IMG/VR virus record: IMGVR_UViG_3300029704_000004
Strand: one strand, 5' to 3'
Origin: a virus
DNA length: 64,000 nucleotides
In this document: positions 5,132 through 63,560 of the stretch, piece after piece
Position numbering within the stretch: the stretch's first letter is position 1
How the letters are laid out: each line of letters starts with the position of its first letter
The notes under the pieces: model-generated
Database searches by the model: none
What the model was told of the DNA's origin: nothing
Seen by the model: the letters and a program-made list of their open reading frames with translations, nothing else
Made by a program: the position numbers and the translations under genes

Positions 5132-8100
5132 ATGACAAAGAAGTGTAATAGATTAAGAGGTGAACGACCTAAAGCATTTTGGGGTGCTTTAGTTGGTGGT
5201 GCTATGAATTTAATTGGTAGTGCTATTAGTTCTAAATCTCAAGCTAGAGCTATCAGAAGACAAATTGAAGCTCAGAAAGAAGCTGCTCGAACTCAATTAG
5301 AGTTAGCTAATAATAGTAATCTTGCTAGTACGTTGAATAGTTATGTAACTGCTACAAGAAGTTATAATGATGAAGATGATTATAATTTAAAGTATCGTCT
5401 TGGTGGTAATAAACGTTTAGAAAGTAATAGAATTTATATTACTGATGGAGGCAATGCTACTAAGATTGGAAATGATACATACCTTTTACGGGGGGGTTCT
5501 CACGAGCAAACCAATGAGACTGGTCAAACAGGTATTGGTATCAATGTTGGTGGTAACGAAGTTGAAGCTGAGGGAGGTGAAGTTGCTCAGAAGAAGAATG
5601 GTGCTCTAAGAATCTTTAGTGCTCAACCTATTCTTGGTAATGGTATGAGTCCTGCTCAAGCTATTCTTAGAGGTTATAATAAAGATAAAGTATTTAATGC
5701 TCAACAAGCATTTAAGAGAAGAAATGGTCTTAAAGATGATGGAGGTAAAGCAAAATGGGGTATTGGATGGCTTGACAGTTTATTTGGAAACGATAATCCT
5801 AAAAAGAAAACTGTTCATTTTTATAAATCTCAAGCTACAGGTAAAGTATTTAAAACTAGACAAGAAGCTATAGCCGAAAATAATAAATATAAAACTAATT
5901 TAGGTTATAGAAGAACTATCAATAGAGAACGAGAATTTGAAGCTGCTAAAAACAAAAGCGGTAATGAACGAATACCTTATATTAAAGAAAAAGAAATTAA
6001 ATTAAGTAAGGCAGGTAAATTAACAGGAATAAAACTTACTACTAATCAATTAGATAGTATTGCTAAATATGCAAATAAAGTAGGACTTCCTATTAAAACT
6101 GCTTTAGGATTGGTTGGACAAGAAAGTGCTTTTGGAAACTATTTTGGTTATGCAAATAATGCTAAATTTCTAAATGAATATCATAAACAAGGAGAAATGA
6201 ATAGAGATATTTTTGGTATTCCTGCATATAATATAGTAAATTACGAAAGATTACTTCCTAATAAAATACCAACATTGGTAGATGATAATGCCATAAATGA
6301 TAAATACGCAAAAAGAGGTATAAATAAATTTGGATATTCTGCTGTAATCAATGGTGATGAATTAGATAAACTTAAAGTTCAACATGAAGCTTATCCAGGT
6401 CTTGCTAAAAAACGTGCAAAATTTTGGAAAGATATTAAAGTTCCAACTTTGGAATTGGCATTTAAAGCTTATAAAGACCATCCGAATTTATATAATGCTG
6501 GTAATCCTAATCAACAAAATTTAGTTAATAACAAAGCTAATGATGTTTGGGGAAGTCCAGAAATTCAAAAATGGTATAGAACATCTCCTTATGTAAAACA
6601 TCGTCTTGGTGGTCGTTGTAAACTTAGAAATGACGGTTTAACTTCTAAAGATAGAGGTTCTTCTAAACGTCTTTATCCTTCGGTATCATCTAAAGATTTT
6701 GCAGGTGGTGGTAGAAGTTATCCTATTCCAACTAAAGCTGATGCTGTTGATGCTTTAAGACTTGCTGGTCTTCATGGAAGAAGTGATGTTAGAAGTAAAG
6801 TATATAGTAAATATCCTAGTCTTCGTCCTAAAGCTAGAATTGGTGGCAGTTGGAAAGCTCCAGTTTATAATACTAATAAATATAGAGTTTCCAATCGTAT
6901 GAGAAGACAAATAGCAACTTGGGAAGGTTCTGATTTTGCAGGTCAAAATAGAAGATTCAAAGGTGATGCTATTGGTGCTAAAGAAAGAGAACTTAGACGA
7001 ATAATGGGAAGAACTTATAATTATCTTAATGATAATCAAAGAGATTCTCTTAATAGTATTTACTATAATAGTCGAGTTGATACTTTCAAAAATGCTTTTG
7101 GTAAATGGTTTAGAAATTTAAATAGTGCAGTAGATAGAGGTGATGAACGTGCGTTCAATAATAGTCTTGCTGGTATTAGACAAAGTATGACTGTTGGAGA
7201 AAATAGAAAAAGTATGAGTGGTTTAGCTAAACGTAGAGCTTGGGAAAGAAATTGGTTTGGCAATCCTATTCCAATGGATAGTAATGAAACTAAAGCTATT
7301 CTTAATCAACAAGCTGAAGCTAAAATGGTTCAACCTACAGATAATACTAGAGTTGTTATTCAGCCTGAGTATATTGAAATTCCTACTCCTGTCGGTCATG
7401 GTGTTGTTCCAGTAGATAATCCAGACCCTAATTTATTGCAAGGTAATATTAAAGATAATTTAATTAATATGGGAAATAAATTTAGATTAGGACAAAGATG
7501 TGGTGGAAGTACTAGAATGCGTAAAGCCTTAGGTGGTGAAAGCCGCCCCGTAAAAGGCATGAGACGTAAACTTGCTTGGGGTGATGTAACTTATCCTTAT
7601 CGTAGAAATAATAATTTTGATTATTGGGATATTATAGACCAAGAACAAAAAATTAATGATAAAGGTGGTATAAGTCCTTGGACAACATCTAATAAATACG
7701 ATGTTAAAGTTCCTTATGTAATTACTAAGAGTACTCCTACTATTCCTTATACAAGTCAAGTTAGTACTCCAACTTCTGGAGTTTCTGAAAATAAGACTAT
7801 TCCTACTTATACTGGTAATAAGTCGGGTATGATAATTCGTGATGCTGATTGGTATGGTCTTGGAGCTGATTTAGTTTCTAGTATTGGAGGAAGTATTCTT
7901 GGTTTGGGTGCTTATAAAAACTTAGATTTTGATTATAATCTTCCAAACTTTGTAGAGGAAAGTCCAGTTGCTCTTAATACTACTTATCATAATGAAGCTC
8001 AAAAGTCTAATGTTGAACGTAATCGTTTAAATAGTAGAAATAGTATTCTTAGAAATACTATGAGTGGTAGTACTGCTGTTGGTCGTATGCAAGGTGTTGA

Positions 8101-8680
8101 TACTAACGCTTTATATCAACTTAATCAACTTGCTGATGAAAAAACTAATAAAGAAACTGAACTTATGAATCAGAATCTTTTGAACGAACAACAAGTTAGA
8201 GCTAGAAACGCTGCTGCTAGAAATCAGTATTATAATACTGTTGCTAGTATTAAGAATGCTGCTATTCAAGCTAAGAATGAAGCTGAACTTGCTAAGGGAC
8301 AAATTCTTAGTGGAAGTCTTCAAGGTATTGGAAATAGTTTCCAAAACTTTATTAGTCAAGGTCGTCAAAATTATGATGATACTCAAGCTATGCTTATGGG
8401 AGTTGCAGCTTCTGATTATGCTACTCCATCTAGATTACTTGAACTTGGTGTTGATGTTGGTGATGATGCTGCTCTTGCAGGTATTTATCGTTCAGCTATG
8501 AATATTCCAAATCCAGGTGCTAGACCTAAGAGAGAAGACTATTCAGATAATACTGAATATAGTTATGCTCTTACTAGATGGGAGAATCAGAACAAAGCAT
8601 ACCAAAGAAGAAATAGTTATGCTGATTTAATTAAAGGTAGAATGAGTAAAAAGAATCTTATTAAATACGGTATTATTTAA
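5132..8680 (+). CDS. large virion or ejected protein with N-terminal hydrophobic segment; weak lysozyme/transglycosylase-like GQESAFG motif
   Basis: 1182-aa ORF. N-terminal AFWGALVGGAMNLIGSAISS. LGLVGQESAFGNY (E codon 6122-6124) only loosely resembles SLT catalytic motif I. Repeated basic R[LI]GG motifs. Carries two copies of the GC-rich motif. Confidence 0.6.
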   Translation: MTKKCNRLRGERPKAFWGALVGGAMNLIGSAISSKSQARAIRRQIEAQKEAARTQLELANNSNLASTLNSYVTATRSYNDEDDYNLKYRLGGNKRLESNRIYITDGGNATKIGNDTYLLRGGSHEQTNETGQTGIGINVGGNEVEAEGGEVAQKKNGALRIFSAQPILGNGMSPAQAILRGYNKDKVFNAQQAFKRRNGLKDDGGKAKWGIGWLDSLFGNDNPKKKTVHFYKSQATGKVFKTRQEAIAENNKYKTNLGYRRTINREREFEAAKNKSGNERIPYIKEKEIKLSKAGKLTGIKLTTNQLDSIAKYANKVGLPIKTALGLVGQESAFGNYFGYANNAKFLNEYHKQGEMNRDIFGIPAYNIVNYERLLPNKIPTLVDDNAINDKYAKRGINKFGYSAVINGDELDKLKVQHEAYPGLAKKRAKFWKDIKVPTLELAFKAYKDHPNLYNAGNPNQQNLVNNKANDVWGSPEIQKWYRTSPYVKHRLGGRCKLRNDGLTSKDRGSSKRLYPSVSSKDFAGGGRSYPIPTKADAVDALRLAGLHGRSDVRSKVYSKYPSLRPKARIGGSWKAPVYNTNKYRVSNRMRRQIATWEGSDFAGQNRRFKGDAIGAKERELRRIMGRTYNYLNDNQRDSLNSIYYNSRVDTFKNAFGKWFRNLNSAVDRGDERAFNNSLAGIRQSMTVGENRKSMSGLAKRRAWERNWFGNPIPMDSNETKAILNQQAEAKMVQPTDNTRVVIQPEYIEIPTPVGHGVVPVDNPDPNLLQGNIKDNLINMGNKFRLGQRCGGSTRMRKALGGESRPVKGMRRKLAWGDVTYPYRRNNNFDYWDIIDQEQKINDKGGISPWTTSNKYDVKVPYVITKSTPTIPYTSQVSTPTSGVSENKTIPTYTGNKSGMIIRDADWYGLGADLVSSIGGSILGLGAYKNLDFDYNLPNFVEESPVALNTTYHNEAQKSNVERNRLNSRNSILRNTMSGSTAVGRMQGVDTNALYQLNQLADEKTNKETELMNQNLLNEQQVRARNAAARNQYYNTVASIKNAAIQAKNEAELAKGQILSGSLQGIGNSFQNFISQGRQNYDDTQAMLMGVAASDYATPSRLLELGVDVGDDAALAGIYRSAMNIPNPGARPKREDYSDNTEYSYALTRWENQNKAYQRRNSYADLIKGRMSKKNLIKYGII
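5478..5500 (+). repeat. GC-rich 26-nt motif family, copy 1 (G-rich strand on +)
   Basis: CATACCTTTTACGGGGGGGTTCT, inside the CDS, translated YLLRGGS. Confidence 0.9.
7538..7561 (-). repeat. GC-rich motif family, copy 2 (G-rich strand on -)
   Basis: Plus strand reads GAAAGCCGCCCCGTAAAAGGCATG, inside the CDS, translated ESRPVKGM. Confidence 0.9.
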
Positions 8681-8692
8681 AATAAATAAATA

Positions 8693-8725
8693 GTTCTAGT
8701 GAAATTTTGTTCACTAGAACTTTTA
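8693..8725 (+). terminator. intrinsic terminator
   Basis: Perfect 11-bp stem GTTCTAGTGAA / TTCACTAGAAC with loop ATTTTG, followed by TTTTAT. Lies 13 nt after the stop at 8680. Confidence 0.8.
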
Positions 8726-8736
8726 TCGTATATTTG
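8706..8736 (+). promoter_or_regulatory. Bacteroidetes-type promoter (-33 TTTG, -7 TATATTTG)
   Basis: TTTG at 8706-8709 and TAnnTTTG match TATATTTG at 8729-8736 with a 19-nt spacer. About 28 nt upstream of the ATG at 8764. Confidence 0.6.
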
Positions 8737-14300: not shown

Positions 14301-17300
14301 CTGCACTTAATGATGCTCTTGATGTTCTTAATCTTACTAAAGGAAAGAATTATCGTTTAGGAGAACAAATTCAAGGTTTCCTTAGTCTTCGTCAAGATAT
14401 ATTTGATAGTCAAGAAAGAGAAGAAAGTCATAATGTTAATAATCCAGATGATAGTAATAATGGTGCTGAACCAGAGAGTACAACTACTCCTCCCCCTAGC
14501 ACGCAAACGACCTCAAATCCTGCGTCACAAGCCACTCAACCTCAGCAGCCTATTAATCAATCGGCAAGCACCCCACAGTCGCCTATAGCGCAAGGAAACA
14601 CGCCTACAGGCAATTCGCAATCACAAAGTGCGCAGCCAACACTACGCAACGAAGTGGGTGAGCGGGTCACAGAATTTTTAAATAGTCATAGTTCTATAAA
14701 ACCAACTAATATAAAAGTAGATAAAAATGGTAATGTTTCTAGTGGTGAACTTACTATTGATAATAATGCTAGAACGGAAGATATATTTGCTTTTATGGGT
14801 AATGCAGATTTATTTGAAAATCCTGAACTCGCTAATATTCCTAGTGCTACTGTAGAAAGAAATCCAAGTTTTGAATATGATGATAATAGTAATCCTATTA
14901 TTATTCAAAAAGGAAAAATTGACGTACAATTAGCAACTGGTCAATCAAATAGTTCAATACCTTTTACGGGGGGGTCTTCTGGTTCTAATGCTAGTACATC
15001 TACACAAGATAATACTAGTACTAATCAACAAACTACTCAGCAACAAGCTCAACCAGCTACTCAACCTCAAGTTGTAGATAGAGCTGAACTTACTGCTAAT
15101 TTTATGGGAAAACTTAGAACTAGTGGTAAAGAAATTAAAGCAGGTAATTTAACTGCTGAAGAGTTTATTAAATCTCTTAAAGATGAAGGTATTGCTCTTG
15201 GAGCAAGTCAAGAAGATATTGACGGAGCTATAACCAGTGTAAAAGCTGTTATGAACAACCTTCTTGGAACTACTTTTGCTTCTAGTGTTGGTGAAGTTAT
15301 GCTTGCTAGTGCAGTAGAGGAATATAAACCAAGTTTATCTTTCGGAAATGAATATAAAGATGCTGCTAATAATATGCTTAAAAATTATGCTTTTGAAGTT
15401 AAACTCAGACAACATAACGGAAAGTATTATGGTAATCTTGAAGATTTACTCCGATATATAAACGAACATAGTCCTAGTAAGAATACTGCTGATTTCATTT
15501 ATAATAGTCTTAAAGAATATCTTAAAACTGAAGAAGCTAAAAAGCAATTTGTAATGCTTGATGCTGATTCAGTTGATGATGCTGAATTTATGACTAATGT
15601 TCGTAAGACTGCTGGTGAACGTAGAGCCGAAGCTATTAAAGCTGGTACTCTTAAACGAGTTAATATTCGTGAGCTTAGTGAAGTAGTTCCTCCTGATAGA
15701 ATTGATGCAAGTTTAGCAGAACTTGATAAAATTAAAGAAGGCGATAAACTTACTGTAAAGAAAGCAAACAAGCTTGCTACTAATACTGATGTTTTATTAG
15801 TTCAACATAATGGTACTACTGTTGGTTGGATGGGTATTCCTACTTTTGATGTATCAACAGGAAGATATATTCAAGTTAACGATTGTATCAAATATACTGT
15901 AGGTAGGTCTGCTGAATATGATGGTGCTGTTAAAGATTGGATTCTTTCTATAGCTGACCCAAAAGATGAAGATAGTAGAAAACTTAACGACCTTCTTTAT
16001 AAAATAGCATTTGATAAGAAATATGATGGTTCATTTGTTGAGAAGTTTAAGAATAATCCTAGAGTTCAGGAAGCTGTAAAGAATGATTTTATAGTTATCA
16101 ATAAAGATAAAGGTTTTACTTATGCTAAAGCTCTTGATGGTATGGTTAAATTATGGAGATATAATCCTAATGTATCTTCTTTTAATCCTATTCCTGAAAG
16201 TATTAAATTGTTCTTTGATAATCTTAGAACTAGTTATCAAACTAGTTTAGCTTTGATTAATAACAATCAAGAACTTACTGTTAGTAAAATAAGTAAAGGT
16301 GAACTTCTTAGACTTGCTCCGCATGGAACTCCTGGAGAAGCATTTAGATTTGCTCAACCTGCAAGTATTGCTATTAGTAGTAAAACTGATGCTAGAATAG
16401 CTTTAGCTAGAAATCTATCTCAAATTGAAGTTAGCGGTAAGCAAACTAATGATAATCTTGGTTTTAGAATGAACCAAACATTAATTGCTATCGATAATGG
16501 AAATGGTACTATAGATTATACTAATGCTTATCCTGTAAATTGGGGAGTTACTAACTATGAGAAAGATGGTAAACTTGTAAATATGCCACATAGTAAAGTT
16601 CTTGCTGATTTAACTAACGCTATTGAAGGGCAAATTATTGATAGACTTACTAATCTTCAGAAAGGTGATAGTTTAGCTAATTGGAATGAGTTTAGAAGTT
16701 TTCTTGATACTCTTCTTGATTATAACAATAATAGTACTCTATTTAAAACTAGTGGTGTTTTTCATCGTAACAATGGACTTACTTATATTAATGCTGGAAG
16801 TAAAGCTGTAGCACTTTATGCTTGTGATACTAAACGTACTGGTGCTCCTACACAACTTGTATTTATGGAACATGGTAAAAAAGTTAGTAGTTATAGCTTG
16901 TTAGATAATGGAGCTGAAGCTGGTAAAGCTCTTGTTCAATTCCTTAGAGAAAACGCTACTGTAAACTTTGCTCACGAACTTCTTAGTAGTGATAATAATA
17001 CTTCTATTCCTTTAAAAGGTTTTGTAAGTAGAAATGCTGACGGAAAACTTGTGATTAATATACCTGAGTATAATGGTAAAAATGGTTTTAATCGTGTTGA
17101 AGAATCATATAATGATTTTATGATTAAGAATGATTTACTTAGAGTAGATTTAGCTCAAGTTGATGGAAGTAACTATTCAAGATTTTCATCTAATATGAAA
17201 GCTAATAGCGTACTTGAATTTACTGTAGGTGATGAGGTGAAACAAGAAGAAGAAAAGCCACTAGAACCCCCCCGTAAAGAGAATGTATCCACCAATACCA

Positions 17301-18421: not shown

Positions 18422-21400
18422 ATGGCTAATAATTGTAGTTTAAAATTTAATGAAACTAAGGTTTACACCAACCTTAAAGCTGAAGTTGGAAACGATGATG
18501 TTTTATTTAACAGCTTAATGAGTGCAGTAATTGATGGTTCTAGACCATCTGGTTTTAACAAGGAATTTGAAACCTATTATGCTAATAATTATGGTTCTAT
18601 TCCTAATACAAATGATGAAAGTAAAGAAGTTGCTACTGCTATTCAAAATTTTTATAAGAATAGAAATTTTAATGTAAATGAGCATACAACTGATTCTGCT
18701 TTCATTTCTGATGTTAAGTCTAAAGGTTATACTAGTACTGCTGCTAAAACTTGTGGTATTAGAACTACTGGTAATTTGATGTTAGCATTCTATCATAACG
18801 ATTTAATTAAAGGTCGTCTTGAAGAACATGCTGAAGATAGAAAAGATAATCTCGCAAATAGAGTTATAAATCGTATGTTGGGAGCTGTAGCAACAAATAT
18901 TCTTGAAGCTAGAAAAGTAGAAGCTACAAAAGAAGAAATTGCTAAAGTTCGTAAACAACTTATGAATACTAAGAGTAATGATTTTGTTAAGCTTGAGGAT
19001 GAAGTTTCTAAAACTACTCCTCAACTTAGAAATCAATTTGCTACTCTTAAAGATATGCTTTCTGATAAAGTTAAATATTTTACTCAAGTTATTCAAACTG
19101 ATGATAGACTTGGCGAAATTCGTTTTAAGAAAGATGATGATTTAAGTCAGCAAGAAGCAGATTGGAGTGAAAGTTTCGATATAGAAGATGATGATGATTT
19201 AAATCTTAACAATGCTGCTGATAATGCAAGTAACAACGAAAAAGATACTACTACTGCTCGTTGGGAAGATAATGGAACTAAATCTGACTTTATGAAAGAT
19301 TTTAGTTTTGCTGTTCGTAGTTATCTTTCAACTATTCCTAAACTTAGTAGTACAGAAGTAAGTGCTGACGGTAAATATCAATATGATAAAAGTAATCCTC
19401 TTGGAATGGTAGATTATATGGATTTTAAAGTCGTAAACTCTGCAATTAGAGGAGATATTGAAACTACTAATATTGATGCTTTTTTAAAGAAACTTGAAGA
19501 TATTGCAAAATCTAATAAAGAATATGCTGGTCTTGCTTATTTAGCTAATGACCTTAAAAAGAAACCAGATTTTGCTTATAAATTATTTCAAGTTTATAGA
19601 AGAAGAACTATAAGAAAACAGCAAGTTCGTATTGATGATAATTCTGTTTCTCCTACTAGAAGTAATAATCGTGCAGATAAACTTGAAACTTTAAGAATTA
19701 ATTATCTTAATGATATTAAGTCAACTGCTCTTAATATCATGATTGAAGATACTAATGATATTCTTGGAGCAATTAAAACTAAAATAGATGATTATAAGAC
19801 ACTTCAAAAAACTAAAGGATTTGATTTAAATAAACAAGCATTAAGTGCTGATATTATCAATGCTATTGCTAGTCGTTTAAAGCAATATTATCCTTCTCTT
19901 GATAAAGCTGCTATTGAAAGATTCGCTAGACTTAATGGAAAAGTTGACGGTAAAACTCCAAATATTGCTAATAATCTTACTCAACTTTATGGTTATCTTG
20001 AGAATACTGCAAAGTATGCTAACGAAACTCTTAATAATAAGCGAAATCTTGATAATAGATTTAAAGAAGCTAACAAGATTAAAGATAAGAAAGCTAAGAA
20101 AGAAGCTCTAGATAGTGTTCGTGAAGCTTATAAACAAGGCTATCTTTCTACTAATACAAAAGCTTATGCTCTTGAATTAGCTAAATCTTTAGCTCCATAT
20201 TCTGTAGTTAATATTGATTCTAATTCTACTAATGCTCTTGGTAATCAGTCTGCTGACCAAATTAATGACAGTATGATTACTAATTTCCTTAATGCAGTTA
20301 AAGCAACTTTAACTGAACAGCAAAAAGATGGAAGCAAAGTTTCTACTGAACTTATTAATTATGGAAAGTATAAGTTCCAAGGAGTACAATACAATCTTAG
20401 TGGTATTCTTATGGAACATCGTGATGAGAATGGTGCTGTAATTAATTATGGTCTTTTCTACAAAGATAAAGACGGTAATATTCAAATCACTAATTATGCT
20501 AGAGATATGGTTAATATCTCTTTGTTCGATGGTGCAGGAAATCCTAATACTAAAGATAATGTTCTTTATTCAGGTATGTCTAAAGGAGATTATGTATATA
20601 CAGGATTTGCTCAATACTTTAATACAGAGCAAAATCCTAAGATGCTTATGGGTGATTACTTTATGCGTATTCCTTCTGATGCTCCAAAGAACTTTGTAGT
20701 TCATGCTCCTAGATATAAAGTTGATGGCTTATTCTCTAAGATGCACGCTATTAAAAATGCTAAAGGTGAAGTTATAGCTAAAGAAGTTAGTGTTGATGAT
20801 ATTAACGAAAATCATCCAATAGTACAACAGTTTAGAAATATATTCAAACAGGAACTGTTGGATATGGTAAACTTTATCAACATTGTATTTGAAGTTAAAG
20901 AAAATACAGAAACTCTTGAAGATGGTACAGTTGTTGACCAAAGAGGAAGAATTGTATTTAATAATGACAATACTCCAATGTTTAAAAAAGGTTGGGGATT
21001 AGATGCTGAATCTGCTCGTAGAGTATTTGCTAATTATCATATTGGTAAAGGACATAAACATTTTATTGAAAAGAAAGGTGATGGTTGGGCATTTAATGGA
21101 CTTCTTTTTAAAGATGATAGATTTGTTCTTACAGATTATAAAACTGGTACAACTACAAAGTATGGTGACGATTTATTAAAATACTTGTTTCCTTCTCTTT
21201 ACGGGGGGGCTAGAGATGGCTTTATTCCTTTCACTACTAACGCTAATGGTGAAGTAGAACTTAACCTTACAGCAGACCAAGAAGCTATGATTACTAGAAT
21301 GGTTAAAGGTTTTGTAACTGACTATTCTAATAATGCTATTACTCGTATGAGCGAATATAAAGACCTTGACATTAATAATCTTATTAATGAAAAGAATAGT

Positions 21401-24400: not shown

Positions 24401-27400
24401 ACTTTTGCAGTATATAAAACTCTTGCTGATATTGGTAGTAATTATGATACTGCTGTAGGTTTTATTATGCAACCTGCTATTACAAAAATTGTAAATGCTT
24501 ATAATGCTAATAAATCTATTTATTCAGATAAACATAATAAACCAATAGAAGAAGCTATTAGGTCATTAGGCAAAGAGATTCTTAATACTTATCATATTAA
24601 TACTGATAAAATGAATCTTGGTGAAATAGTTGCTAGAGTTAATGGATTACTTGGTACTAAGTATAGTTTAGATAAACATAATGATATTATTTTATCGCCT
24701 GATGAGTTAGCAAAGAGATTGCTTAATGATAAAAACCGCCCCGTAAAAGTAAGTATATATCAACATGATTGGGGTGTTCTTTTTGCTTATAATGATTTAG
24801 CTAAACTTTCTGATAAAATTGGTTCTACTGCAAGGGTTTGTAATCCTGATAGATTTGGTGCTAAACAAAGTATTTTCGCTACTCGTAAAGTATTTAATGA
24901 TATTGCAGATTTAATTGAAGATGAAAATCCAGCTTTAGTTGTTGGAACTTCTTCTATTGTTAATAGTATCTATGCAGGTTATGACCCTACTAAAGGTTTA
25001 AGAAGCTATATTACTAGTAATGCTAAAAGTGCATATCCTAGTCTTAATGCTTTCTTAAAATATGCTAGTGCTCCTTCTATTCTTGTAAATAGAATGTTGT
25101 TTGATACAGAACAAGATAATTTTAGAATAGCTAATAGAGCTATTGAAGTTATAAACGGTAGTAATAATGTTACTGAGAAAGATTATAAAGGTTTTACTCA
25201 GTATATTCTTAATGCTGCTTATAAACAAACAGATGCTGTTGTAAACAACTATACTTATGATGTAGAGAAGAAACAAACTATAGTAAATAAAGAATTTGAT
25301 GAAACGGATGAAGCTCTCAGAATTATGGGTTATGGTTGTACTCCTGATTTTACTTTTAATGTTAAAGATGTAACTAATCCTACACAAGAAGAAGTAAATG
25401 CTTGGAGTAAACTTAGTCCTGCTCAAAAAATTAGTTGGCTTAAATCTAATAGTGTTGATGCTGGTATATTCAATTATATAAATACTAATTTATTTAATGA
25501 ATATGAAATGAATAGAGATGGTCAAAGTCGTCAAACTATTCGTTTTAACGAAGATGCCGTTGATAATGAAACTGCTTATAATCTTTTTGATACTGCATTT
25601 AGTTCAGATAATCCATTAGTTAAACTTGCTGCTATGGATATGGTTAAGTATGCTTTTGTCGCAGAAGGTTTTAAAATAGGTAGAGGTGCTATTAATAAAT
25701 GTATTAAAAATACTGCTCTTCGTGATGAAAACACTTTTGTTCAATTTAATGGTGCTAGAACTAGTATTATTGCTCAAATTAAAGCTCAAGTAGATAATGC
25801 AGTTTCTAGAACTGATTTAGTTGAACAATATCTTAGAAGTGACCCAGGAGTTAGTAATGTTCCTCATAAATTTATGAATAAAAAATATAGTTCTATGTTC
25901 GAAACTGTAACTAGAGGAATGTACGAATTTAGTTTGGACGATAAAGATAATGCTATCGAATTTGGATTTGCTAGAGAAAGTAATGCAGAGTTCGTTCCAA
26001 TACAATTTAATAATTATATTTATATTACTAAAAAAGAAGGTAACGAAAGCGTTACTAGACTATATAAAATTGTTTCTCCTGACCTTGGTTCTGGTATAGG
26101 TTTTGCTTATCCATTAAATGGTTTGGAAGCTGGTGAAGATAGAGAAGTTAGTATTAATAATGCTAATAATAGTGTTCCTCTTCCAAGTTATTATGAAGCA
26201 GTTATTGATAACTTGATGAACAGTGAAGTTGCTGATTATACATTAGATGAATTAAATGAATTGTATAAGAAGCATGTTGCTACAACAAAAGTCAATAAAG
26301 TCAAAGCTGTTACACATTTTGATATAATGTCAGATGCTAATAATGATAATGGTGGAGCTAAAGATGCTATTAATAAGATTATTAAAACTTTCAACAATTA
26401 TGAAGGTAATAGAATCTTTATTCAAAATATGTATCTTTATGGTAAAACTAAATATGATTCATTTACTCCTCCTATTCATGTTGAAGGTGAAACTATTTCT
26501 AATGGTGGTGAACCTATTAGTATTAATGGAAACTTCTTATTTAGACGTGCTACTAAAGTAAGTATTGAAAGTCATAATATTCGTACAGGAGAACATATTG
26601 AGGAAAAACCTCAACTTGTTGAAATAGTTAGGGAAACTCCTATGGCTAGTTCTCGTGAAGAGGTAACTCTTGGTTCTGCAAGTTCTAAACTTGAACAAAG
26701 TCTTAGAACTACAACTGATTCTTTTGAAAAGAATATAGTAAAAGAACTTAATCGTAGAAGTGGTCTTGGAGATATAGAAGCTGGAAAACTTATGCGTCAA
26801 CTTCGTGGAGAAGGATTTGAACAAAGTACTAAAGGCTATAAAGAGTTTAAAGATAGCGTATTCTATAGTGGTTATGCTTATCTTAAACATAAAGTTAATA
26901 GTACTCTTGGAAAGTTTAGTCAATTCTACAGAGATGAAAATGGTAATTACTTTGCTATCAATAGTCCTGAAGTAATCAATGTTATTAAGAATAATCCTGC
27001 TTTACAAAGACAGTTCCTTGAAACACTTGCTGATGCTAATGCTATTGTTGATAAATTTGGAATTATTAATCAGATTAAAGCTGATGAAATTGAGAATCCT
27101 ACTTTGAAATTCTACATTGATGAAATGCAGAAGATGATTAAGGAACTCAGTAATAGTTCTATTATTGATGATGCAGAAGTTAAGTTTGGACTTGATTATC
27201 TTCAGAAACTTAGTAATGACCCTAATATTCAAAATGGTCTTATTAGTATATACGATGGTTTCCATTCTAGTGGTTGGCTTGATGCTTGGTTTGGTGATTT
27301 ACAAGAACAAGGTAACAGTCTTGTTCAAGTAGTTACTAGAAAAGTAATGGCTGATATTCGTGCTAAAGAAAGTCAAGCAAAAGATTTTGCTGTAGCTTTT

Positions 27401-31831: not shown

Positions 31832-31844
31832 ACATTAAATGGTT

Positions 31845-31870
31845 ATAGCCGCCCCGTAAAAGGAATGTAT
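31845..31870 (-). repeat. GC-rich motif family, copy 7 (-), intergenic
   Basis: Plus strand reads ATAGCCGCCCCGTAAAAGGAATGTAT, starting 14 nt after the RNAP stop codon. Confidence 0.9.
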
Positions 31871-35022: not shown

Positions 35023-35047
35023 CATGCCTTTTACGGGGGGGCTAGAG
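35023..35047 (+). repeat. GC-rich motif family, copy 8a (+), left arm of intergenic hairpin pair
   Basis: CATGCCTTTTACGGGGGGGCTAGAG. Confidence 0.9.
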
Positions 35048-35091
35048 TGGTTCTAACATAATAACATGTATCATTAAACCATCTAGTTGTT

Positions 35092-35118
35092 GTACCCCCC
35101 CCCGTAAAAGGTATGTAT
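35092..35118 (-). repeat. GC-rich motif family, copy 8b (-), right arm of hairpin pair, C9 run
   Basis: Plus strand reads GTACCCCCCCCCGTAAAAGGTATGTAT and abuts the stop codon (35118-35120) of the upstream minus-strand gene. Confidence 0.9.
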
Positions 35119-39448: not shown

Positions 39449-40099
39449 TTACTTTTTACGTTTAACAAAATCTTTTCCAGCTTCATAATCTTCGTGAGAT
39501 ATAGCAACTATATTCTCTTTATGTTCACTAGTAACAGGAATTTCTTTATCATCAGCAGATAAATTATATACATATCCATCTTTATCTTTACAAAGATGTT
39601 CAAAACCATAAGCAGATATAATTTCATTAGTTACATCTTTCTTACTGGTTTCTTCGATAAGAATAAGTTTATCTGTTTTAACAAGAGTAGAAATATCAAT
39701 GAAAGTTGACTCTACCCGCCCCGTAGAAGGTATTGTAGGTTCATGTCCATTATCACTAGCTTGCCAAGCTAATAACATATTACAATAATTACCTAAATCT
39801 TGAATAGTATCAAACATACTTTCATCTTCAACATTAGGATTACTGTAACCTTGAAAATCATCTTCAATAAGATGAACCAAACGATTAGCTTTATCATACA
39901 TTCTAGCTAGACCATATCTATAGCCTAGTTTATCACAACCTTTATTGAAAGCATTACCATAATCAGCATTCTTCTTAGCCATAAGACTAAGCATTTTGTT
40001 TTGTTGGTCACGTAATGCAACAACTTCAGGAGTTACAAGATGCTCTGGAACTACTCCATTAAGCACCGCTTTCCAATACTTTAAATCACTTTCTGTCAT
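39449..40099 (-). CDS. DUF1599-like (nucleotide-modification-associated) protein with C-terminal extension
   Basis: KNADYGNAFNKGCDKLGYRYGLARMYDKANRLVHL resembles the DUF1599 core. Carries motif copy 9. Confidence 0.45.
   Translation of the reverse strand: MTESDLKYWKAVLNGVVPEHLVTPEVVALRDQQNKMLSLMAKKNADYGNAFNKGCDKLGYRYGLARMYDKANRLVHLIEDDFQGYSNPNVEDESMFDTIQDLGNYCNMLLAWQASDNGHEPTIPSTGRVESTFIDISTLVKTDKLILIEETSKKDVTNEIISAYGFEHLCKDKDGYVYNLSADDKEIPVTSEHKENIVAISHEDYEAGKDFVKRKK
39710..39735 (-). repeat. GC-rich motif family, copy 9 (-), divergent
   Basis: Plus strand reads CTCTACCCGCCCCGTAGAAGGTATTG. Translated on the minus strand as IPSTGRVES. Confidence 0.8.
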
Positions 40100-41012: not shown

Positions 41013-41039
41013 ATGAGAAAGCCGCTCACGTAGCAAGGA
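41013..41039 (-). repeat. degenerate motif copy (-), partner of copy 10
   Basis: ATGAGAAAGCCGCTCACGTAGCAAGG compared with consensus GAAAGCCGCCCCGTAAAAGG. Its GAAAGCCGC pairs with GCGGCTTTC of copy 10. Confidence 0.55.
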
Positions 41040-41055
41040 AAGTAGGTCTAAGCGT

Positions 41056-41083
41056 ACATACCTTTTACGGGGCGGCTTTCATG
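41056..41083 (+). repeat. GC-rich motif family, copy 10 (+), intergenic
   Basis: ACATACCTTTTACGGGGCGGCTTTCATG. Confidence 0.9.
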
Positions 41084-43629: not shown

Positions 43630-44770
43630 ATCTAAGAGTATCTTTTATAAAATTATCTATTTCATCGTTACTATATTTATAATGCAAATCTGCAAAATCC
43701 TTACATTCATAATTGTCAAGACCAAACTCACCACGAGTAATGAACAAATAAGGAATATTATAAGTACTTAAAAGATAATCAGCACCATCACGACCAGTTC
43801 TATCAAAATCTAATAAACTAACAATTAGTCCATCATCAGCTAAACGATTCTTTAACCAATCATATTCGTTAGCTTTTAATCTATAATTTTCACTAGGAAG
43901 ATTAACTACACCTATTGTTAAAGCCTTTCTATCCCCCCCGTAAAAGGTATGATTAACTAAATGATTACCTAGACTTAATCTATCTTTACTTGATTTAGTA
44001 ATTATAATATAATCATAATTATCTAATTCAAGATTAGGAAGACCTTCAAGTACATTACAATTAGTTATAAATTTCCTTTCTTTTGTTCTATCTCTAAGTG
44101 GGAAATAAAGTTTTATAAGATATATTCCTTGTCTATTTCTACCCAACATATAAGCATAACATGGGTCTTTAGTAGTATATCCATATCTAGGAGTAGGATT
44201 ACTACTTCTATCTATATAATACTGTTCAACAGGAATAACAAAATGAGTATTAAGATAAGCAAGATTTACACCAAGTTTATTCCAATAAGCTTTATCTCTA
44301 CTATTCCAACTACGTGGAACAATTTCAATAATAGCTTTTCTGGATTTACTTTTAATAAGAGCATTTCTAATAGATTCATCTATCTCATAATGATTAACTC
44401 GATTATCTATATCATCACTAAACACACTATAAATATGTTTAAGAATAAAATAGAAATCTTGTTTATTATCAGTACTAATAGGTCTTTCATAAACAATACT
44501 AAGAACGTAAGCTACTACATCATACACATCACCAAAGAAGCAGCCATTAAAATCTCGAACTTTAAGTCTTCCTTTCATATTGTATGCAATACCCATACTA
44601 CTATCAGTATCATCATCTCTAAATACAGACTTAATAAGATGATTATGTTTAACACAATCATCTACAACATTGATAGGAATATCTAGATATTTTGCAACAA
44701 TATCTTCTTGACTTATTCGAGACTCTATAAAAGCCTTTGTAAGTTTAGTAGTATTAATTGTACGTTTCAT
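43547..44770 (-). CDS. DNA primase (Toprim-type)
   Basis: 407 aa. IIITKSSKDRLSL and LLDFDRTGRDGADYL resemble Toprim E / DxD elements. Position in the replication module. Carries motif copy 11. Confidence 0.5.
   Translation of the reverse strand: MKRTINTTKLTKAFIESRISQEDIVAKYLDIPINVVDDCVKHNHLIKSVFRDDDTDSSMGIAYNMKGRLKVRDFNGCFFGDVYDVVAYVLSIVYERPISTDNKQDFYFILKHIYSVFSDDIDNRVNHYEIDESIRNALIKSKSRKAIIEIVPRSWNSRDKAYWNKLGVNLAYLNTHFVIPVEQYYIDRSSNPTPRYGYTTKDPCYAYMLGRNRQGIYLIKLYFPLRDRTKERKFITNCNVLEGLPNLELDNYDYIIITKSSKDRLSLGNHLVNHTFYGGDRKALTIGVVNLPSENYRLKANEYDWLKNRLADDGLIVSLLDFDRTGRDGADYLLSTYNIPYLFITRGEFGLDNYECKDFADLHYKYSNDEIDNFIKDTLRYVELRYRKTKGNSDAYFKRLSDCDLPY
43928..43952 (-). repeat. GC-rich motif family, copy 11 (-)
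   Basis: Plus strand reads TCTATCCCCCCCGTAAAAGGTATGA. Translated on the minus strand as HTFYGGDRK. Confidence 0.9.
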
Positions 44771-47816: not shown

Positions 47817-49229
47817 TCAATCTACAATACAATAATCATAATTATTATCACTTTTAACTTCAATTTCAGTTTTATTAAGAATTAGATGATTTGCGCCATT
47901 AACACGCTCATCTAGTTTTTTCTCCTCTAAAGAGCCTTTATAATATAAGGTGTATAATTGTACCTCCTTTGCGAATTGAACCTTTGAGAGCCTATATAAG
48001 TAGGTCTCCATGGTATCACACAACGGCGACGTAATTACAACAACGTCTACATTTACGGCTAAATCCTTATCGGGAGAAGCATTTGTAGACAAAACGTGAA
48101 TAGCACCTTTGTTCATCAACTTTTGAGCTAAATTTTTCTGAGATTTTACACCAAGCATTTTTGGTTTTCCCTTATTAACTCCACTCTTAATTAGAACTTC
48201 ATTTCCATTATCATCAATAGCAGGAATATTTTCTACTTTATCGTGATAATTATAACAAGTATTATAATGAGTATTATCATTAATATATTTAGTTACTTCA
48301 TTTGCAAAGTCACCATGTTTATTAATAATAAGAATATTCTTATCTGCATTGTCTTCAACAATCTTTAAAATATAACTAAGTTTCTCATCAGAAGAAGCAA
48401 GAGCAAGACTTCTACTTCTAATAATTTCGTATATTCCACTAGCACGTTCTTTAAGGGCATTTGGAGAATAAAGTTCGTCTATTTCAATATTAAATTGAAT
48501 AGTCATATCAAGATTCTCATTCCAACCATTTTGACGAGCTATGTTATAACATACAGCCATACTAGAACTATTAGTATTACTATTACCTAGACGAGCCATC
48601 TTAATTGTTTCAAAGTCACCAAAGATAGCTATAGCAGTAGATATTTCTTTATTATAATAGTCAAGTTTCTTTTTAAGATTACTATCTTCATCTATAATCA
48701 AAGGAACTAATACTTCTTTTACGGGGCGGCTAGAACGGATTTCATCTACACTAGCTTGATTATAATAACCAACTCTAGGAATTAGATTATTAATTTGTTC
48801 TAACTTACCAGTAAGTAGAGTTGATGATAATACCAACTTAAACTTTGCTTTGTCTAGCAGACCTACATAACAATAAAGACATTCTTTAGGATTATAAATA
48901 ACCACTAAAGTAGGATTTAGATGACTAAATATATCTGTAGCTTCACTAACAGTTAAAATTTTAATCAATCCTCTAGTAATAAAATTACTATAAACATTAG
49001 AATGAACAGGTTCGCTCTTATGTAATAGATAATCTTTAACTTTGTCTTTATCTACAAAGTCTGCAACTACAATATCAGTCTCTATTGTAGGACTTTTATT
49101 ATACATTGCAGGAAGTATCATCAATAAAGGTCTAAGAACATCTAAAGGAGCAGGAATTATAAAAGTTCCAATTCCTTTATTCATTCTCCATTGATAAACA
49201 CTTTTTTCATGCAATTCTTCTTCTGTCAT
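47817..49229 (-). CDS. SF2 helicase-like protein (C-terminal helicase domain pattern, no Walker A seen)
   Basis: NILIINKHGDFANEVTKYIN ... LMNKGAIHVLSTNASPDKDLAVNVDVVVITSP ... YLYRLSKV resembles helicase motifs IV-VI. No GxxxxGK[ST] found. Carries motif copy 12. Confidence 0.4.
   Translation of the reverse strand: MTEEELHEKSVYQWRMNKGIGTFIIPAPLDVLRPLLMILPAMYNKSPTIETDIVVADFVDKDKVKDYLLHKSEPVHSNVYSNFITRGLIKILTVSEATDIFSHLNPTLVVIYNPKECLYCYVGLLDKAKFKLVLSSTLLTGKLEQINNLIPRVGYYNQASVDEIRSSRPVKEVLVPLIIDEDSNLKKKLDYYNKEISTAIAIFGDFETIKMARLGNSNTNSSSMAVCYNIARQNGWNENLDMTIQFNIEIDELYSPNALKERASGIYEIIRSRSLALASSDEKLSYILKIVEDNADKNILIINKHGDFANEVTKYINDNTHYNTCYNYHDKVENIPAIDDNGNEVLIKSGVNKGKPKMLGVKSQKNLAQKLMNKGAIHVLSTNASPDKDLAVNVDVVVITSPLCDTMETYLYRLSKVQFAKEVQLYTLYYKGSLEEKKLDERVNGANHLILNKTEIEVKSDNNYDYCIVD
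48711..48736 (+). repeat. GC-rich motif family, copy 12 (+)
   Basis: TACTTCTTTTACGGGGCGGCTAGAAC. Translated on the minus strand as SSRPVKEV. Confidence 0.9.
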
Positions 49230-52590: not shown

Positions 52591-53149
52591 TTAATATATT
52601 AACTATTTCCATTCCATTATAATTATTATCTTTATTAGCACTAATCCATTTAATTAGACGATTACAAAATTCTTTGTATTTACTATCATCTATGAATTTA
52701 ATAAAAGGAGAGTAATTTGTACTATAAACAAAAGGAGCAACATGATATAGTTTATCTTTACCTTTAGTAATATCAAAACCAAAATCAGTAGCAGCTCTAC
52801 CGAGAACCATTATCTTTTTAATATTATTTATTCTTATATCAGCAAATGTATGTAGCATACATCTACGAACTATACTTTCGTTTATAGGACATTTATCATC
52901 AAGCTTACAACGAATAAGTGGAACAATAAAGGGGACTAGTTGCTCTAGCCCCCCCGTAAAAGGTGTAATAACCTCATTTATTATCTCAACATACTTACTA
53001 AATGTCATTCCTCTATTCTTATAAGCATTGTAATCAACATTTGGTACAACAATAATCATACCAGACATTGGATTACCAACACCACTAAGACATTTACACT
53101 TAGTATTAAACATACCTAAAGGACAACCTTCACATACTTTAGGAATCAT
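52580..53149 (-). CDS. uracil-DNA glycosylase-like protein (family 4-like, divergent)
   Basis: N-terminal CEGCPL as in family 4 UDGs, and position next to polB. The canonical GExPG motif is not seen. Carries motif copy 13. Confidence 0.35.
   Translation of the reverse strand: MIPKVCEGCPLGMFNTKCKCLSGVGNPMSGMIIVVPNVDYNAYKNRGMTFSKYVEIINEVITPFTGGLEQLVPFIVPLIRCKLDDKCPINESIVRRCMLHTFADIRINNIKKIMVLGRAATDFGFDITKGKDKLYHVAPFVYSTNYSPFIKFIDDSKYKEFCNRLIKWISANKDNNYNGMEIVNILNDT
52943..52967 (-). repeat. GC-rich motif family, copy 13 (-)
   Basis: Plus strand reads CTCTAGCCCCCCCGTAAAAGGTGTA. Translated on the minus strand as TPFTGGLEQ. The adjacent GGGGACTAG (52931-52939) can pair with CTAGCCCC. Confidence 0.9.
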
Positions 53150-53587: not shown

Positions 53588-53616
53588 AGTTTATTTAATA
53601 TTTTAAATTCTAATTT

Positions 53617-53643
53617 ACATACCTTTTACGGGGCGGCTTTATG
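53617..53643 (+). repeat. GC-rich motif family, copy 14 (+), intergenic
   Basis: ACATACCTTTTACGGGGCGGCTTTATG. Confidence 0.9.
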
Positions 53644-53654
53644 ATTAATCATGC

Positions 53655-53670
53655 CACACCCATAAAGGGC
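53655..53670 (-). repeat. degenerate motif copy (-), partner of copy 14
   Basis: CACACCCATAAAGGGC compared with CCGCCCCGTAAAAGG. CATAAAG pairs with CTTTATG of copy 14. Confidence 0.4.
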
Positions 53671-53706
53671 TTAAATCACAAATAAATACGCATTATGCGA
53701 ATTTCG

Positions 53707-56713: not shown

Positions 56714-56742
56714 TTCTAGCCTCCCCGTAGAGAAGTTAGCAT
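56714..56742 (-). repeat. GC-rich motif family, copy 15 (-), divergent; supplies the stop codon of 56716..57057
   Basis: Plus strand reads TTCTAGCCTCCCCGTAGAGAAGTTAGCAT. On the minus strand this is CTA CGG GGA GGC TAG, giving ...LRGG-stop. Confidence 0.8.
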
Positions 56743-57057
56743 ACAATCATTTTCCTTTTCTAACTTATCACATACATTAAGTATGAAATTAATACCAGCA
56801 TGTCTAACAGCAATTATATCTTTAATTACAGTAGTCATATCATGCTGAGTTAATTTCATAAGAAAATATATAGTTCTAAAACCTCTACGAGTATTAAGAG
56901 GAAAGTTATAAGGAATAATATAACCTTTACATTTTGAAGAATGTTTGTAAAAGTCTTTCTTATCAACATAACCATTACATTGTACAACTTCTCCAAAATC
57001 AGGCACACAACAATGTCTTGTATCAAACTGATAAAGACAACTATTACATAGTATCAT
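56716..57057 (-). CDS. Cys-rich hypothetical protein
   Basis: 113 aa with N-terminal CNSC ... HCC ... C pattern. Ends in LRGG, encoded by the motif. Confidence 0.55.
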   Translation of the reverse strand: MILCNSCLYQFDTRHCCVPDFGEVVQCNGYVDKKDFYKHSSKCKGYIIPYNFPLNTRRGFRTIYFLMKLTQHDMTTVIKDIIAVRHAGINFILNVCDKLEKENDCMLTSLRGG

Positions 57058-60518: not shown

Positions 60519-60836
60519 TTATTTATATACTTTACCACTAGTTAAACTTTCATTTATTTCTCTACTATAGAAATTATCTCCATCTATATTAGATAAATCA
60601 ATATGTTTACTAAATGCTAAAGAATCTATTGAATCTTTATATTTCATACCTTTTACGGGGCGGCTAGAACTATTATCTGGTTCTACCATATTAATATTAT
60701 GATTATTATAATTAATATTATTTTCATCATATATTAATATTCCATTAAGATAAATAATATAACTAAATATACTTAATAATAAAATAATAATAAGTATCAG
60801 CAATAGTTTATTTTCTGTTTTCTTTTCCATAATCAA
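60519..60836 (-). CDS. small membrane protein (N-terminal TM)
   Basis: LLLILIIILLLSIFSYIIYL. Carries motif copy 16 (SSRPVKGMK). Confidence 0.55.
   Translation of the reverse strand: MIMEKKTENKLLLILIIILLLSIFSYIIYLNGILIYDENNINYNNHNINMVEPDNSSSRPVKGMKYKDSIDSLAFSKHIDLSNIDGDNFYSREINESLTSGKVYK
60644..60670 (+). repeat. GC-rich motif family, copy 16 (+), full consensus
   Basis: TCATACCTTTTACGGGGCGGCTAGAAC. Confidence 0.9.
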
Positions 60837-62734: not shown

Positions 62735-62804
62735 GTCTTGTTTTTTTCTTGATGACCAAGTCTTGTTCTTTTCTTGATGAGCACTCTCATTTTTTTCTTG
62801 ATGA
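62735..62804. repeat. iteron-like direct repeats, cluster 1 (2.7 copies of GTCTTGTTTTTTTCTTGATGA)
   Basis: 62735-62755, 62760-62780, and a partial copy at 62790-62804. Confidence 0.8.
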
Positions 62805-62833
62805 GTTGCAAGAGTAAGAACAAAACTAACAAG

Positions 62834-62864: not shown

Positions 62865-63410
62865 CTACTTGTTCTCAACAGGCTTTTCAGCAACAACTTC
62901 AGTAACTTCAGCAGCAACAGTCTTGCTTGCATTAACTGCTGCAAGAACCATCGTAGGAGTCTTTGGTGCATCAAAGATGATAGCTTGATTCAAATCACAA
63001 GGCTCGATAGCTTTGATTTGATTATCATATCGTTCTCCTTTAGTCACTGCTTTAGAACCATCACTGAGTTGATATTCAGTGCCAGAAGCTTGTAATTCAC
63101 TAGTGAATGTAATCACACTGCCAAGTAGCAAATCTCTTGCTACTTCTTGGCTCATTTCATAAGGATTAATACCTGAAATGAAGTAAGAATGCAGAGGAGC
63201 AACTTCATTCACAAAATGAACGAATTGCTTCAAGGTAAACTTGATAAAGTTCACTTTAGCTTTCTCAAATGTGATTGCACCAGTTGTGGTATCAACATTA
63301 CGTTTGAAACCATCAAACATAGCATTTGTAAATATCTTGATATTCACAACACCATCAACATTAGACAACTCAACACGATTGATAACTGCTTTAATCTGTA
63401 ACATAATCAT
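62865..63410 (-). CDS. abundant-type hypothetical protein, possible paralog of 59930..60472
   Basis: 181 aa with GC-richer codon usage and an Ala/Val/Glu-rich tail. Confidence 0.6.
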   Translation of the reverse strand: MIMLQIKAVINRVELSNVDGVVNIKIFTNAMFDGFKRNVDTTTGAITFEKAKVNFIKFTLKQFVHFVNEVAPLHSYFISGINPYEMSQEVARDLLLGSVITFTSELQASGTEYQLSDGSKAVTKGERYDNQIKAIEPCDLNQAIIFDAPKTPTMVLAAVNASKTVAAEVTEVVAEKPVENK

Positions 63411-63473
63411 AAAAATTTAAATAATTATAATCAGTTGGTACACGACCAACAGCAGAAGTCCTTCTCCTGCCAA

Positions 63474-63519
63474 GTCTTGTTTTTTTCTTGATGAATTGTT
63501 CTTGTTTTTTCTTGATTGA
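63474..63519. repeat. iteron-like direct repeats, cluster 2
   Basis: 63474-63494 is identical to 62735-62755. 63498-63519 is a variant, GTTCTTGTTTTTTCTTGATTGA. Confidence 0.8.
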
Positions 63520-63542
63520 GAGAAGCATGCTTTCCTTTAGCT

Positions 63543-63560
63543 CCTTGACGGGGGAGTTCA
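63543..63560 (+). repeat. degenerate GC-rich motif relative
   Basis: CCTTGACGGGGGAGTTCA compared with CCTTTTACGGGGGGGTTCT (copy 1). Confidence 0.4.

Follow-up and report, generated by a model that had tools for sequence, protein, structure and literature searches.

Few viruses of the human gut are more abundant than the phages of the crAss-like group, whose DNA replication, recognition and packaging are barely understood. The DNA considered here is a 64-kb stretch of IMG/VR virus record IMGVR_UViG_3300029704_000004 (hereafter the window, on which all coordinates are numbered), with a G+C content of 29–31%. Its closest relative, at 97.6% identity, is the uncultured phage cr8_1 (Crassvirales, Intestiviridae, Obtuvirinae, genus Fohxhuevirus). 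Scattered through its genes and spacers are copies of a GC-rich motif, and the evidence firmly supports the view that this motif is a cis-acting DNA recognition sequence, held by selection at about 17–31 fixed sites per genome across the Intestiviridae. The motif was followed through five Intestiviridae genomes from three subfamilies, namely cr8_1, cr271_1, ctcc615, crAss002 and Carjivirus communis (the prototypical crAssphage), in which the Obtuvirinae are represented by three genomes and proteins of the different subfamilies are only ~45% identical.

Motif copies along the window

A dispersed motif family had been proposed in a first-pass annotation of the sequence, which listed 17 copies and called for shuffled controls and for mapping onto orthologue alignments. 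Searched with at most one mismatch, the word TTTACGGGGSGG has 16 matches in the window, where 100 dinucleotide shuffles predict 0.01, and the 17th copy (core at 56720) has two mismatches. All 17 listed copies are present, each entered at the start of its 25- to 26-nt block. The count of 12 different genes has to be lowered to 12 coding copies in nine open reading frames (ORFs), because three large virion genes hold two copies each, and the four spacers hold five copies. The most repeated 11-mers of the window, as of the whole cr8_1 genome, come from this family, which also accounts for 17 of the window's 43 runs of at least four G or C. The complete genome of cr8_1 holds 27 sites in 92.6 kb, a density of ~1 per 3.4 kb, and a 17-mer scan of IMG/VR retrieved 106 stretches, mostly crAss-sized contigs of ~90–98 kb that each carry several copies. 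In a logo built from 222 distinct copies, the conserved block is CATACCTTTTACGGGGSGGCTAKAA, sharply bounded and with background composition outside; the motif is ~22–25 nt long and asymmetric, a pyrimidine-rich half of 11–12 nt ending in TAC being followed by a GGGG half. The annotation had also judged the motif not to be a described element of crAss-like phages, and no description was found in the paper library searched, even with the sequences themselves as queries, subscription papers lying outside its coverage. It mentioned neither the alternating orientation of the copies nor their family-wide occurrence, including in the prototypical crAssphage.

The coding copies lie in genes of both arms. 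ORF 5132–8680 carries the copy CATACCTTTTACGGGGGGGTTCTCA (5478..5502, + strand) in sense, where it reads LLRGG and is kept in orthologues down to 74% identity, and a second copy (7537..7561, − strand) in antisense, reading RPVK. A sense copy reading PFTGG (14956..14980, +) and an antisense copy reading PPRK (17261..17285, −) lie in ORF 11333–18349. The 4469-aa RNA polymerase (RNAP)-type ORF 18422–31831 holds a sense copy (21191..21215, +), with orthologous copies in cr271_1, ctcc615 and Carjivirus, and an antisense copy (24730..24754, −), with orthologous copies in ctcc615 and cr271_1. Further along, a TCTAC variant (39710..39734, −) lies in sense in the DUF1599-like ORF 39449–40099, a sense copy (43927..43951, −; FYGG) occupies the primase ORF 43547–44770 in the same alignment column as in cr271_1, crAss002 and Carjivirus, and an antisense copy (48711..48735, +; SRPVK) lies in the SNF2-type helicase ORF 47817–49229. 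They are followed by a sense copy (52943..52967, −; PFTGG) in the uracil-DNA glycosylase (UDG)-like ORF 52580–53149, by the copy with two core mismatches (TCTACGGGGAGG; 56714..56738, −), which overlaps the stop codon of ORF 56716–57057 and is a full motif in relatives, and by an antisense copy (60645..60669, +), reading SRPVKGM, in ORF 60519–60836.

Three of the four copy-bearing spacers contain a full or decayed inverted partner, and the resulting hairpins fold far better than shuffled sequences. The strongest (−43.3 kcal/mol, z −6.0) is formed by a tight inverted pair between ORF 35118–35399 and ORF 34302–34778, its left arm at 35023..35047 (+) and its right arm at 35091..35115 (−), with 67 nt between the cores. 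The other two join the full copies at 41057..41081 (+, core 41064; spacer 40873–41092) and 53618..53642 (+, core 53625; spacer 53587–53707) to decayed partners at 41017..41042 (−; GAAAGCCGCTCACGTAGCAAGGAAAG on the + strand; z −3.8) and 53650..53674 (−; reverse complement TTAAGCCCTTTATGGGTGTGGCATG; z −4.5), two of the degenerate relatives noted in the annotation and both real. The fourth spacer, directly after the stop of ORF 18422–31831 and before a tRNA-Gln gene, holds a copy (31843..31867, −; core at 31849) that has no hairpin partner and forms no hairpin. Spacer enrichment in the window is modest (5/17 copies against 12% non-ORF sequence, P = 0.049); in the genomes compared, about two thirds of the copies are intragenic and about a third lie in spacers, which make up roughly a tenth of the sequence.

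The remaining degenerate relatives, listed near 63543, proved to be two direct copies, TTGACGGGGGAG and TTAACGGCGGGG (63538..63588, +), in the spacer just beyond ORF 62865–63410, and the same degenerate copy occurs in cr8_1. Repeats of ~24 nt (GTCTTGTTTTTTTCTTGATGA) with an iteron-like look flank this ORF at 62735–62805 and 63470–63520, and the adjoining positions 63600–64000 are AT-rich, lack a long ORF and hold TTTATTTCTAT repeats. Together with the degenerate copies, these repeats may mark an origin or control region separating the two gene arms.

Several observations concern the surroundings of the copies. The single tRNA-Gln (anticodon UUG, 32027–32098) lies between two converging gene arms and is not a suppressor tRNA, and a search of the window against Rfam at the gathering threshold returned no known RNA family other than tRNA-Gln. 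In the right arm of the tight pair, the C-run at 35097–35108 differs in length among close relatives, from 6 to 9 bases, through real length variation or homopolymer sequencing error. The linear cr8_1 record MT774384 begins 43 nt ahead of one arm of this pair and stops within that arm; the hairpin is probably where the assembly broke, an assembly effect which gives no evidence for a physical genome end.

Conservation, codon use and lineage dialects

Coding copies of the motif occur in all three phases in sense (LLRGG, PFTGG, LYGG) and also in antisense (mostly RPVK), and all nine ORFs are intact. They make use of the rarest codons of the genome, including GGG (1.8% of Gly), CGG (0.6% of Arg) and ACG (2.0% of Thr), and of the rare Pro codons CCG (1.9%) and CCC (2.4%). 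The motif is a nucleotide-level signal that overrides codon choice inside essential genes, and it is read as DNA, neither as RNA nor as protein.

The copies also keep their places. Relatives in IMG/VR carry the motif at the orthologous position even where the flanks have diverged to ~70–75% identity, and in 125 distinct orthologous alignments the constrained core positions differ in 0–2% of cases and the flanks in ~9%, a comparison that is biased because the loci were fetched by motif match; two core positions, the second T (T or C) and the S position, are tolerant. The whole-genome comparison of the five genomes, which is free of this bias, gives the same answer. The mapping confirmed that sites are orthologous across subfamilies: the motif stands in the same alignment column in the SNF2-type helicase of all five genomes, in the primase of four of the five and in the UDG-like protein of all three Obtuvirinae, within which most alignable sites are common to the genomes. 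Where a copy is lineage-specific and its orthologue can be aligned, five of six cases show no indel, as when TVPTPVKG of crAss002 aligns with TIPAPVTG of cr8_1; the sixth, in Carjivirus, lies in an 18-aa insertion within an indel-prone loop of the family B DNA polymerase (PolB). New sites therefore arise mostly by substitution in compatible coding sequence.

Every Intestiviridae genome examined has its own version of the motif as its dominant GC-rich repeated word. The dialect of cr8_1 (27 copies) and of the window, both Obtuvirinae, is CCTTTTACGGGGSGG; that of cr271_1 (Hacihdavirus, 17 copies) is TCTTCTACGGGGGAG (cAt.TCTTcTAC-GGGGGAGcT), that of ctcc615 (Wotdevirus, 19 copies) is ccTTCTAC-GGGGGaG, that of the cultured crAss002 (Churivirinae, 28 copies) is CTCCTTTAYGGGGGAA (ctCCTtTAY-GGGGGAA) and that of Carjivirus communis (31 copies) is CCATCCTCYACGGGGRGT (TccATCCTCYAC-GGGGRGT), in whose genome every YAYGGGG belongs to the motif family. 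Across dialects, the A-Y-GGGG junction is invariant, preceded by 11–12 conserved, mostly pyrimidine positions and followed by ~8–12 more. The orthologous SNF2 site carries a different dialect in each lineage, so the whole set of sites has changed in concert, as a co-evolving reader would produce. The promoters of T7, T3 and SP6 and the origins of ColE2 and ColE3 track their enzymes in this manner, and the motif dialects resemble them.

A reader that co-evolves with the phage lineage is most likely encoded by the phage, and the pattern of sequences suggests that the motif is probably read by a lineage-specific phage protein. A host factor is unlikely, because crAss002 and crAss001 both infect Bacteroides and yet crAss001 has only four CGGGG in 100 kb and lacks the Intestiviridae core ACGGGG altogether. 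An 18-mer scan of bacterial genomes, one for each of 185,579 species, gave 17 single hits, at or below the ~35 estimated for chance; on this result and the missing core in crAss001, a host repeat or a host-determined signal was rejected. A division of the copies into two subtypes serving two RepL paralogues was also considered and rejected, since the Carjivirus subtypes are not discrete and all four combinations are present.

Outside the Intestiviridae, crAss001 (MH675552) offers a candidate analogue that is shorter, the word CTTCTGGAG, which recurs 27 times in 100 kb, 75-fold above what composition predicts. It lies in both orientations relative to genes, never shows two '+' copies in adjacent positions and could be what the steigvirids have in place of the motif. 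The crevavirid cr127_1 (MT774393, 25% G+C) carries an unrelated GC-rich element of ~45 nt (..taatGGCCACAAGGGCGrGAGGtGTTCCGAAAT...) in ~10 copies, in genes and spacers and often as inverted pairs 170–560 nt apart. No dominant dispersed word was found in phi14:2 or in the first 50 kb of the suolivirid cr10_1.

Orientation, spacing and candidate readers

Neighbouring copies tend to face in opposite directions. Alternation was observed at 14/16 neighbour steps in the window (permutation P = 0.004), 22/27 in cr8_1 (P = 0.003), 22/28 in crAss002 (P = 0.003) and 22/31 in Carjivirus (P = 0.02), and also at 20/27 steps of the crAss001 word CTTCTGGAG (P = 0.004). At gaps below 2 kb, all 28 neighbour pairs of the five Intestiviridae genomes are inverted and none is direct, and at gaps of at least 2 kb, 73 of 110 alternate in the six-genome set, which adds crAss001 and its CTTCTGGAG sites. 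Spacing is more even than random (coefficient of variation 0.55–0.74 against ~1 for random placement, P 0.004–0.09), the largest gap being 7–10 kb in four of the five Intestiviridae genomes and 17 kb in cr271_1. Orientation is independent of gene direction, with 45 sense and 31 antisense intragenic copies in the five genomes. The strand polarity of the sites appears to matter. Homology-block ends, taken as possible recombination breakpoints, show only a weak excess close to the sites (P ~0.04–0.09, in a biased sample of loci). Long-range pairing of inverted neighbours, as RNA or as single-stranded DNA, is not supported, as the variable G/C position matches in only 8 of the 22 adjacent pairs of cr8_1; it matches in all three tight pairs of that genome.

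Annotation of the replication arm with Pfam and PHROGs identified a dUTPase, ThyX, an ATP-dependent ligase, a split PolB, a superfamily 1 (SF1) helicase, a Gp157/Gam-like protein and a DUF932 protein, and recognised no nickase, topoisomerase or recombinase. According to the annotation tables, the motif-rich Intestiviridae have a DnaG-type primase and SF1 and SNF2 helicases and lack DnaB, which is present in phi14:2, a phage that shows no such motif; we infer from this that the motif may go with a replisome devoid of DnaB. The phage also encodes a RecT-type recombinase.

RepL/O-like genes have a tight motif pair just upstream in the window, in cr8_1 and at two places in Carjivirus. The winged-helix protein of the window (ORF 34302–34778) is homologous to the 'RepL' proteins gp43 and gp88 of crAssphage and weakly to O-like initiators. 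It is, however, a weak candidate for the reader: searches detect no homologue of it in cr271_1, ctcc615 or crAss002, the alleles of the window and of cr8_1 defy alignment with each other despite identical motifs, and a different inverted repeat sits nearer the gene than the motif pair does. This unrelated repeat, AAAAAGTGGT...ACCACTTTTT, lies at ~34818–34846, upstream of the ORF. In the comparison of window positions 34302–35100 with 1–944 of cr8_1, the two unalignable ORFs, 34302–34778 and gp_19911, both belong to the RepL/O-like family. An allele or a module seems to have been replaced here, with the tight motif pair as the boundary on one side. Another gene of interest is the small ORF directly upstream of the large terminase, which holds a conserved motif copy in cr8_1, cr271_1, ctcc615 and Carjivirus, and by synteny in crAss002; it cannot be called a recognisable small terminase, having no PHROG match.

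Two gene differences in the replication arm concern mobile endonucleases. The PolB gene is split in the window (49226–52590) into a C-terminal part (49226–50293) and an N-terminal part (51379–52590), between which sits a GIY-YIG endonuclease ORF (50323–51087), whereas PolB of cr8_1 is intact (2274 nt); the split is probably due to a mobile intron or to the insertion of a free-standing homing endonuclease. Between its ligase gene and a 118-aa ORF, cr8_1 has an HNH endonuclease ORF and a small ORF (35628–36299), both missing from the window (41448–41457), which indicates another polymorphism of this type.

Interpretation and comparison with known systems

We regard the copies as instances of one asymmetric DNA recognition sequence of ~22–25 nt, and tentatively favour, at odds clearly below even, the reading that it is a polar initiation site, used for site-specific priming or nicking in replication or recombination. 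It would be the place where the phage's own machinery of DNA metabolism loads or initiates, and priming or nicking there would start DNA synthesis or recombination on either strand; the enzyme would engage DNA with polarity and need a site within a few kb on either strand, and the tight inverted pairs in spacers could act as two-way starts that also form hairpins. The sharp asymmetric junction, the promoter- or origin-like dialects, the presence on both strands, the alternation and the bounded gaps argue for a polar enzyme, whose reaction is inferred. Several points weigh against this explanation. Alternation could arise passively, through selection against direct repeats in a phage with RecT, and polarity then need not matter; it is not significant in cr271_1 (12/17) or ctcc615 (12/19), and the tests of alternation and spacing are not independent across genomes, because the genomes share ancestral sites. 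The sites show no step in strand composition, though such a step would not have to occur, and neither a candidate nickase nor a primase specificity emerged. To our knowledge, a site of at least 20 nt exceeds that of any known primase on double-stranded genomes, ColE2-type plasmid origins excepted. Between two crAssphage strains 3.7% apart, the motif has only a slight edge in conservation, differing by 2.3% against 3.8% for its flanks, and one site has decayed.

The annotation had offered four readings, two of which, a site for binding, nicking or modification of the DNA by a phage-encoded activity and a self-mark like Chi or the DNA uptake sequences (DUS) and uptake signal sequences (USS) of bacteria, fit the DNA-level selection, the conservation in place, the dialects, the use of both strands, the even spacing and the hairpin pairs; the comparison with Chi itself fails on the features that define Chi. 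The self-mark, doubtful but only slightly less probable than the favoured reading, is its closest rival in the form of a non-polar tag, one every few kb, which would be bound by a phage protein acting in small-terminase-like packaging, compaction or protection. Orientation would then be functionally irrelevant, and copies would alternate only because close direct repeats cause deletions, in keeping with the absence of direct repeats less than 2 kb apart (0/28) in a phage that encodes a RecT-type recombinase; yet alternation persists at gaps of at least 2 kb (73/110), where pressure against deletions should be weak. The overall profile matches that of USS and DUS, in which an over-represented asymmetric word occurs in both orientations with even spacing, in genes in several frames and as inverted hairpin pairs in spacers, with lineage dialects that track a receptor. 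The motif is longer (~22 against 9–12 nt) and sparser (1 per 3.4 kb against ~1 per kb), and its neighbours alternate. DUS and USS belong to competent bacteria (Neisseria and Pasteurellaceae, respectively) with an uptake receptor, whereas the motif belongs to Crassvirales phages, which as phages have no uptake machinery for it, and occurs at or below chance in bacterial genomes; its rarity in bacterial DNA would itself suit a self tag. The conserved copy upstream of the large terminase also fits, the pac sites of P22, SPP1 and Sf6 lying in the equivalent gene, but that ORF has no counterpart among the PHROG families, the search for a reader turned up no protein, and headful or pac packaging needs a single start site in known cases.

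A signal for the crAss RNA polymerase, be it promoter, pause or terminator, is improbable. It would be T7-like, with an upstream block, a TAC and a G-run at the RNA start, and the motif does share with T7-type promoters a length of ~23 nt, asymmetry, a specificity block followed by TA(C) and a G-run, and one dialect per lineage, as expected of single-subunit phage polymerases. Of the 11 spacer copies in Carjivirus, 8 face the start of a gene no more than ~300 nt away, among them a divergent pair between the arms, and spacer pairs form strong hairpins. T7 promoters, however, are intergenic and all point with the genes, whereas 12 of the 17 window copies lie inside ORFs, about two thirds of all copies are intragenic in either orientation (45 sense, 31 antisense), and the well-conserved window spacer copies with cores at 41064 and 53625 point against genes, so the annotation's proposal of a signal for the virion polymerase is disfavoured. 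In phi14:2, the early transcripts made by the virion RNAP have no common upstream motif and the middle and late promoters are sigma70-like (10.1101/2020.03.07.982082). A Chi-like polar signal, which would stop or modulate the host AddAB/RecBCD or a phage helicase-nuclease coming from DNA ends and so protect the genome from either end, is quite improbable. Like Chi, the motif is polar, G-rich, on both strands and evenly dispersed at a similar density (~1 per 3.4 kb), and the phage carries Gam-like, RecT and SF1-helicase genes. Known Chi sites are nevertheless only 5–8 nt long, host-specific and co-oriented with replication, while the motif has at least 20 conserved nt, is specific to phage lineages, differs between phages of the same host genus (present in crAss002, its core absent from crAss001), alternates in direction and is not enriched in bacterial genomes at the 18-mer level; the circular permutation of the genome is, moreover, an assumption of this reading. 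Very improbable is a selfish or neutral repeat, either a mini-element like the GC clusters of yeast mitochondria and the Rickettsia palindromic elements (RPE) or a repeat homogenised by gene conversion. Those elements, too, are GC-rich islands in AT-rich DNA, sometimes in frame in genes, some of the inverted pairs resemble minute elements bounded by terminal inverted repeats, one Carjivirus copy lies in the 18-aa PolB insertion, and motif sites turn over between strains. They are, however, mobile insertions with presence/absence polymorphism, whereas motif copies hold orthologous positions across subfamilies with proteins ~45% identical, most lineage-specific copies were born by substitution, with no target-site duplications and no transposase, the core is more conserved than its flanks, and the motif overrides codon preference. 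With five of six such copies lacking an indel and with shared alignment columns (SNF2 5/5, primase 4/5, UDG 3/3), a mobile mini-element of the RPE, miniature inverted-repeat transposable element or GC-cluster type, the last of which the annotation had entertained, is rejected. Also discarded were a rare-codon pause, frameshift or slippage site, which fails to explain the spacer copies or the identity of at least 20 nt across frames, and repetitive extragenic palindromic sequences or bacterial interspersed mosaic elements, since a single copy is not palindromic and most copies are intragenic.

Returning to the preferred polar initiation site, and taking it together with the self tag, there is a sizeable, though less than even, chance that the motif is a genome-wide dialect signal read by a co-evolving phage enzyme, either as the phage counterpart of DUS or as ~27 strand-specific starts that would replace helicase-coupled random priming in the absence of DnaB. 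Such signals perhaps exist in other Crassvirales families, each with its own GC-rich words. If true, this would mean that the viruses most abundant in the human gut have a level of genome organisation that had gone unrecognised. The motif predicts a sequence-specific phage enzyme and gives a concrete handle on DNA processing in crAss-like phages; it could explain constraints on recombination between lineages and offers an easy way to assign metagenomic crAss contigs to lineages from their sequence.

The closest precedents for priming or nicking at such sites are the ColE2 origins, the ssiA and ssiB sites of RSF1010 and the nick sites of T5 and tf. The ColE2 Rep/ori and RSF1010 RepB' systems resemble the motif in having an asymmetric site (there of ~30–40 nt); in these systems the element encodes its own primase for the site, and synthesis starts at a fixed nucleotide. 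Close relatives differ in specificity, and RSF1010 uses two sites on opposite strands. They are single origins, in contrast to ~27 dispersed sites, and the crAss primase is DnaG-like and resembles neither ColE2 Rep nor RepB'. The single-strand nicks of T5, tf and LUZ24 are likewise spread over the phage genome at sites that have a consensus and take no account of gene boundaries, and the phage studied here does have a ligase gene. Their consensus is shorter than that of the motif copies, which are candidate nick sites, and the nicks of T5 and tf lie on one strand. Dozens of asymmetric sites of 13–17 bp for one phage protein, some of them overlapping inverted pairs, are found in the stoperators of cluster A mycobacteriophages and the C1 operators of P1. 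These, however, occupy spacers and promoters and follow the direction of transcription, whereas ~two thirds of the motif copies are intragenic and in either orientation; a dispersed operator is disfavoured on these grounds, the sole repressor candidate, the RepL/O-like winged helix-turn-helix protein, being a poor fit. Dispersed recognition words are thus a known kind, represented by Chi, USS/DUS, the FtsK orienting polar sequences (KOPS) and stoperators, and the motif departs from each family tested in the features that define it. What is new for a phage, as far as the paper library searched extends, is the combination of intragenic sites conserved across subfamilies, concerted change of dialect and alternating polarity.

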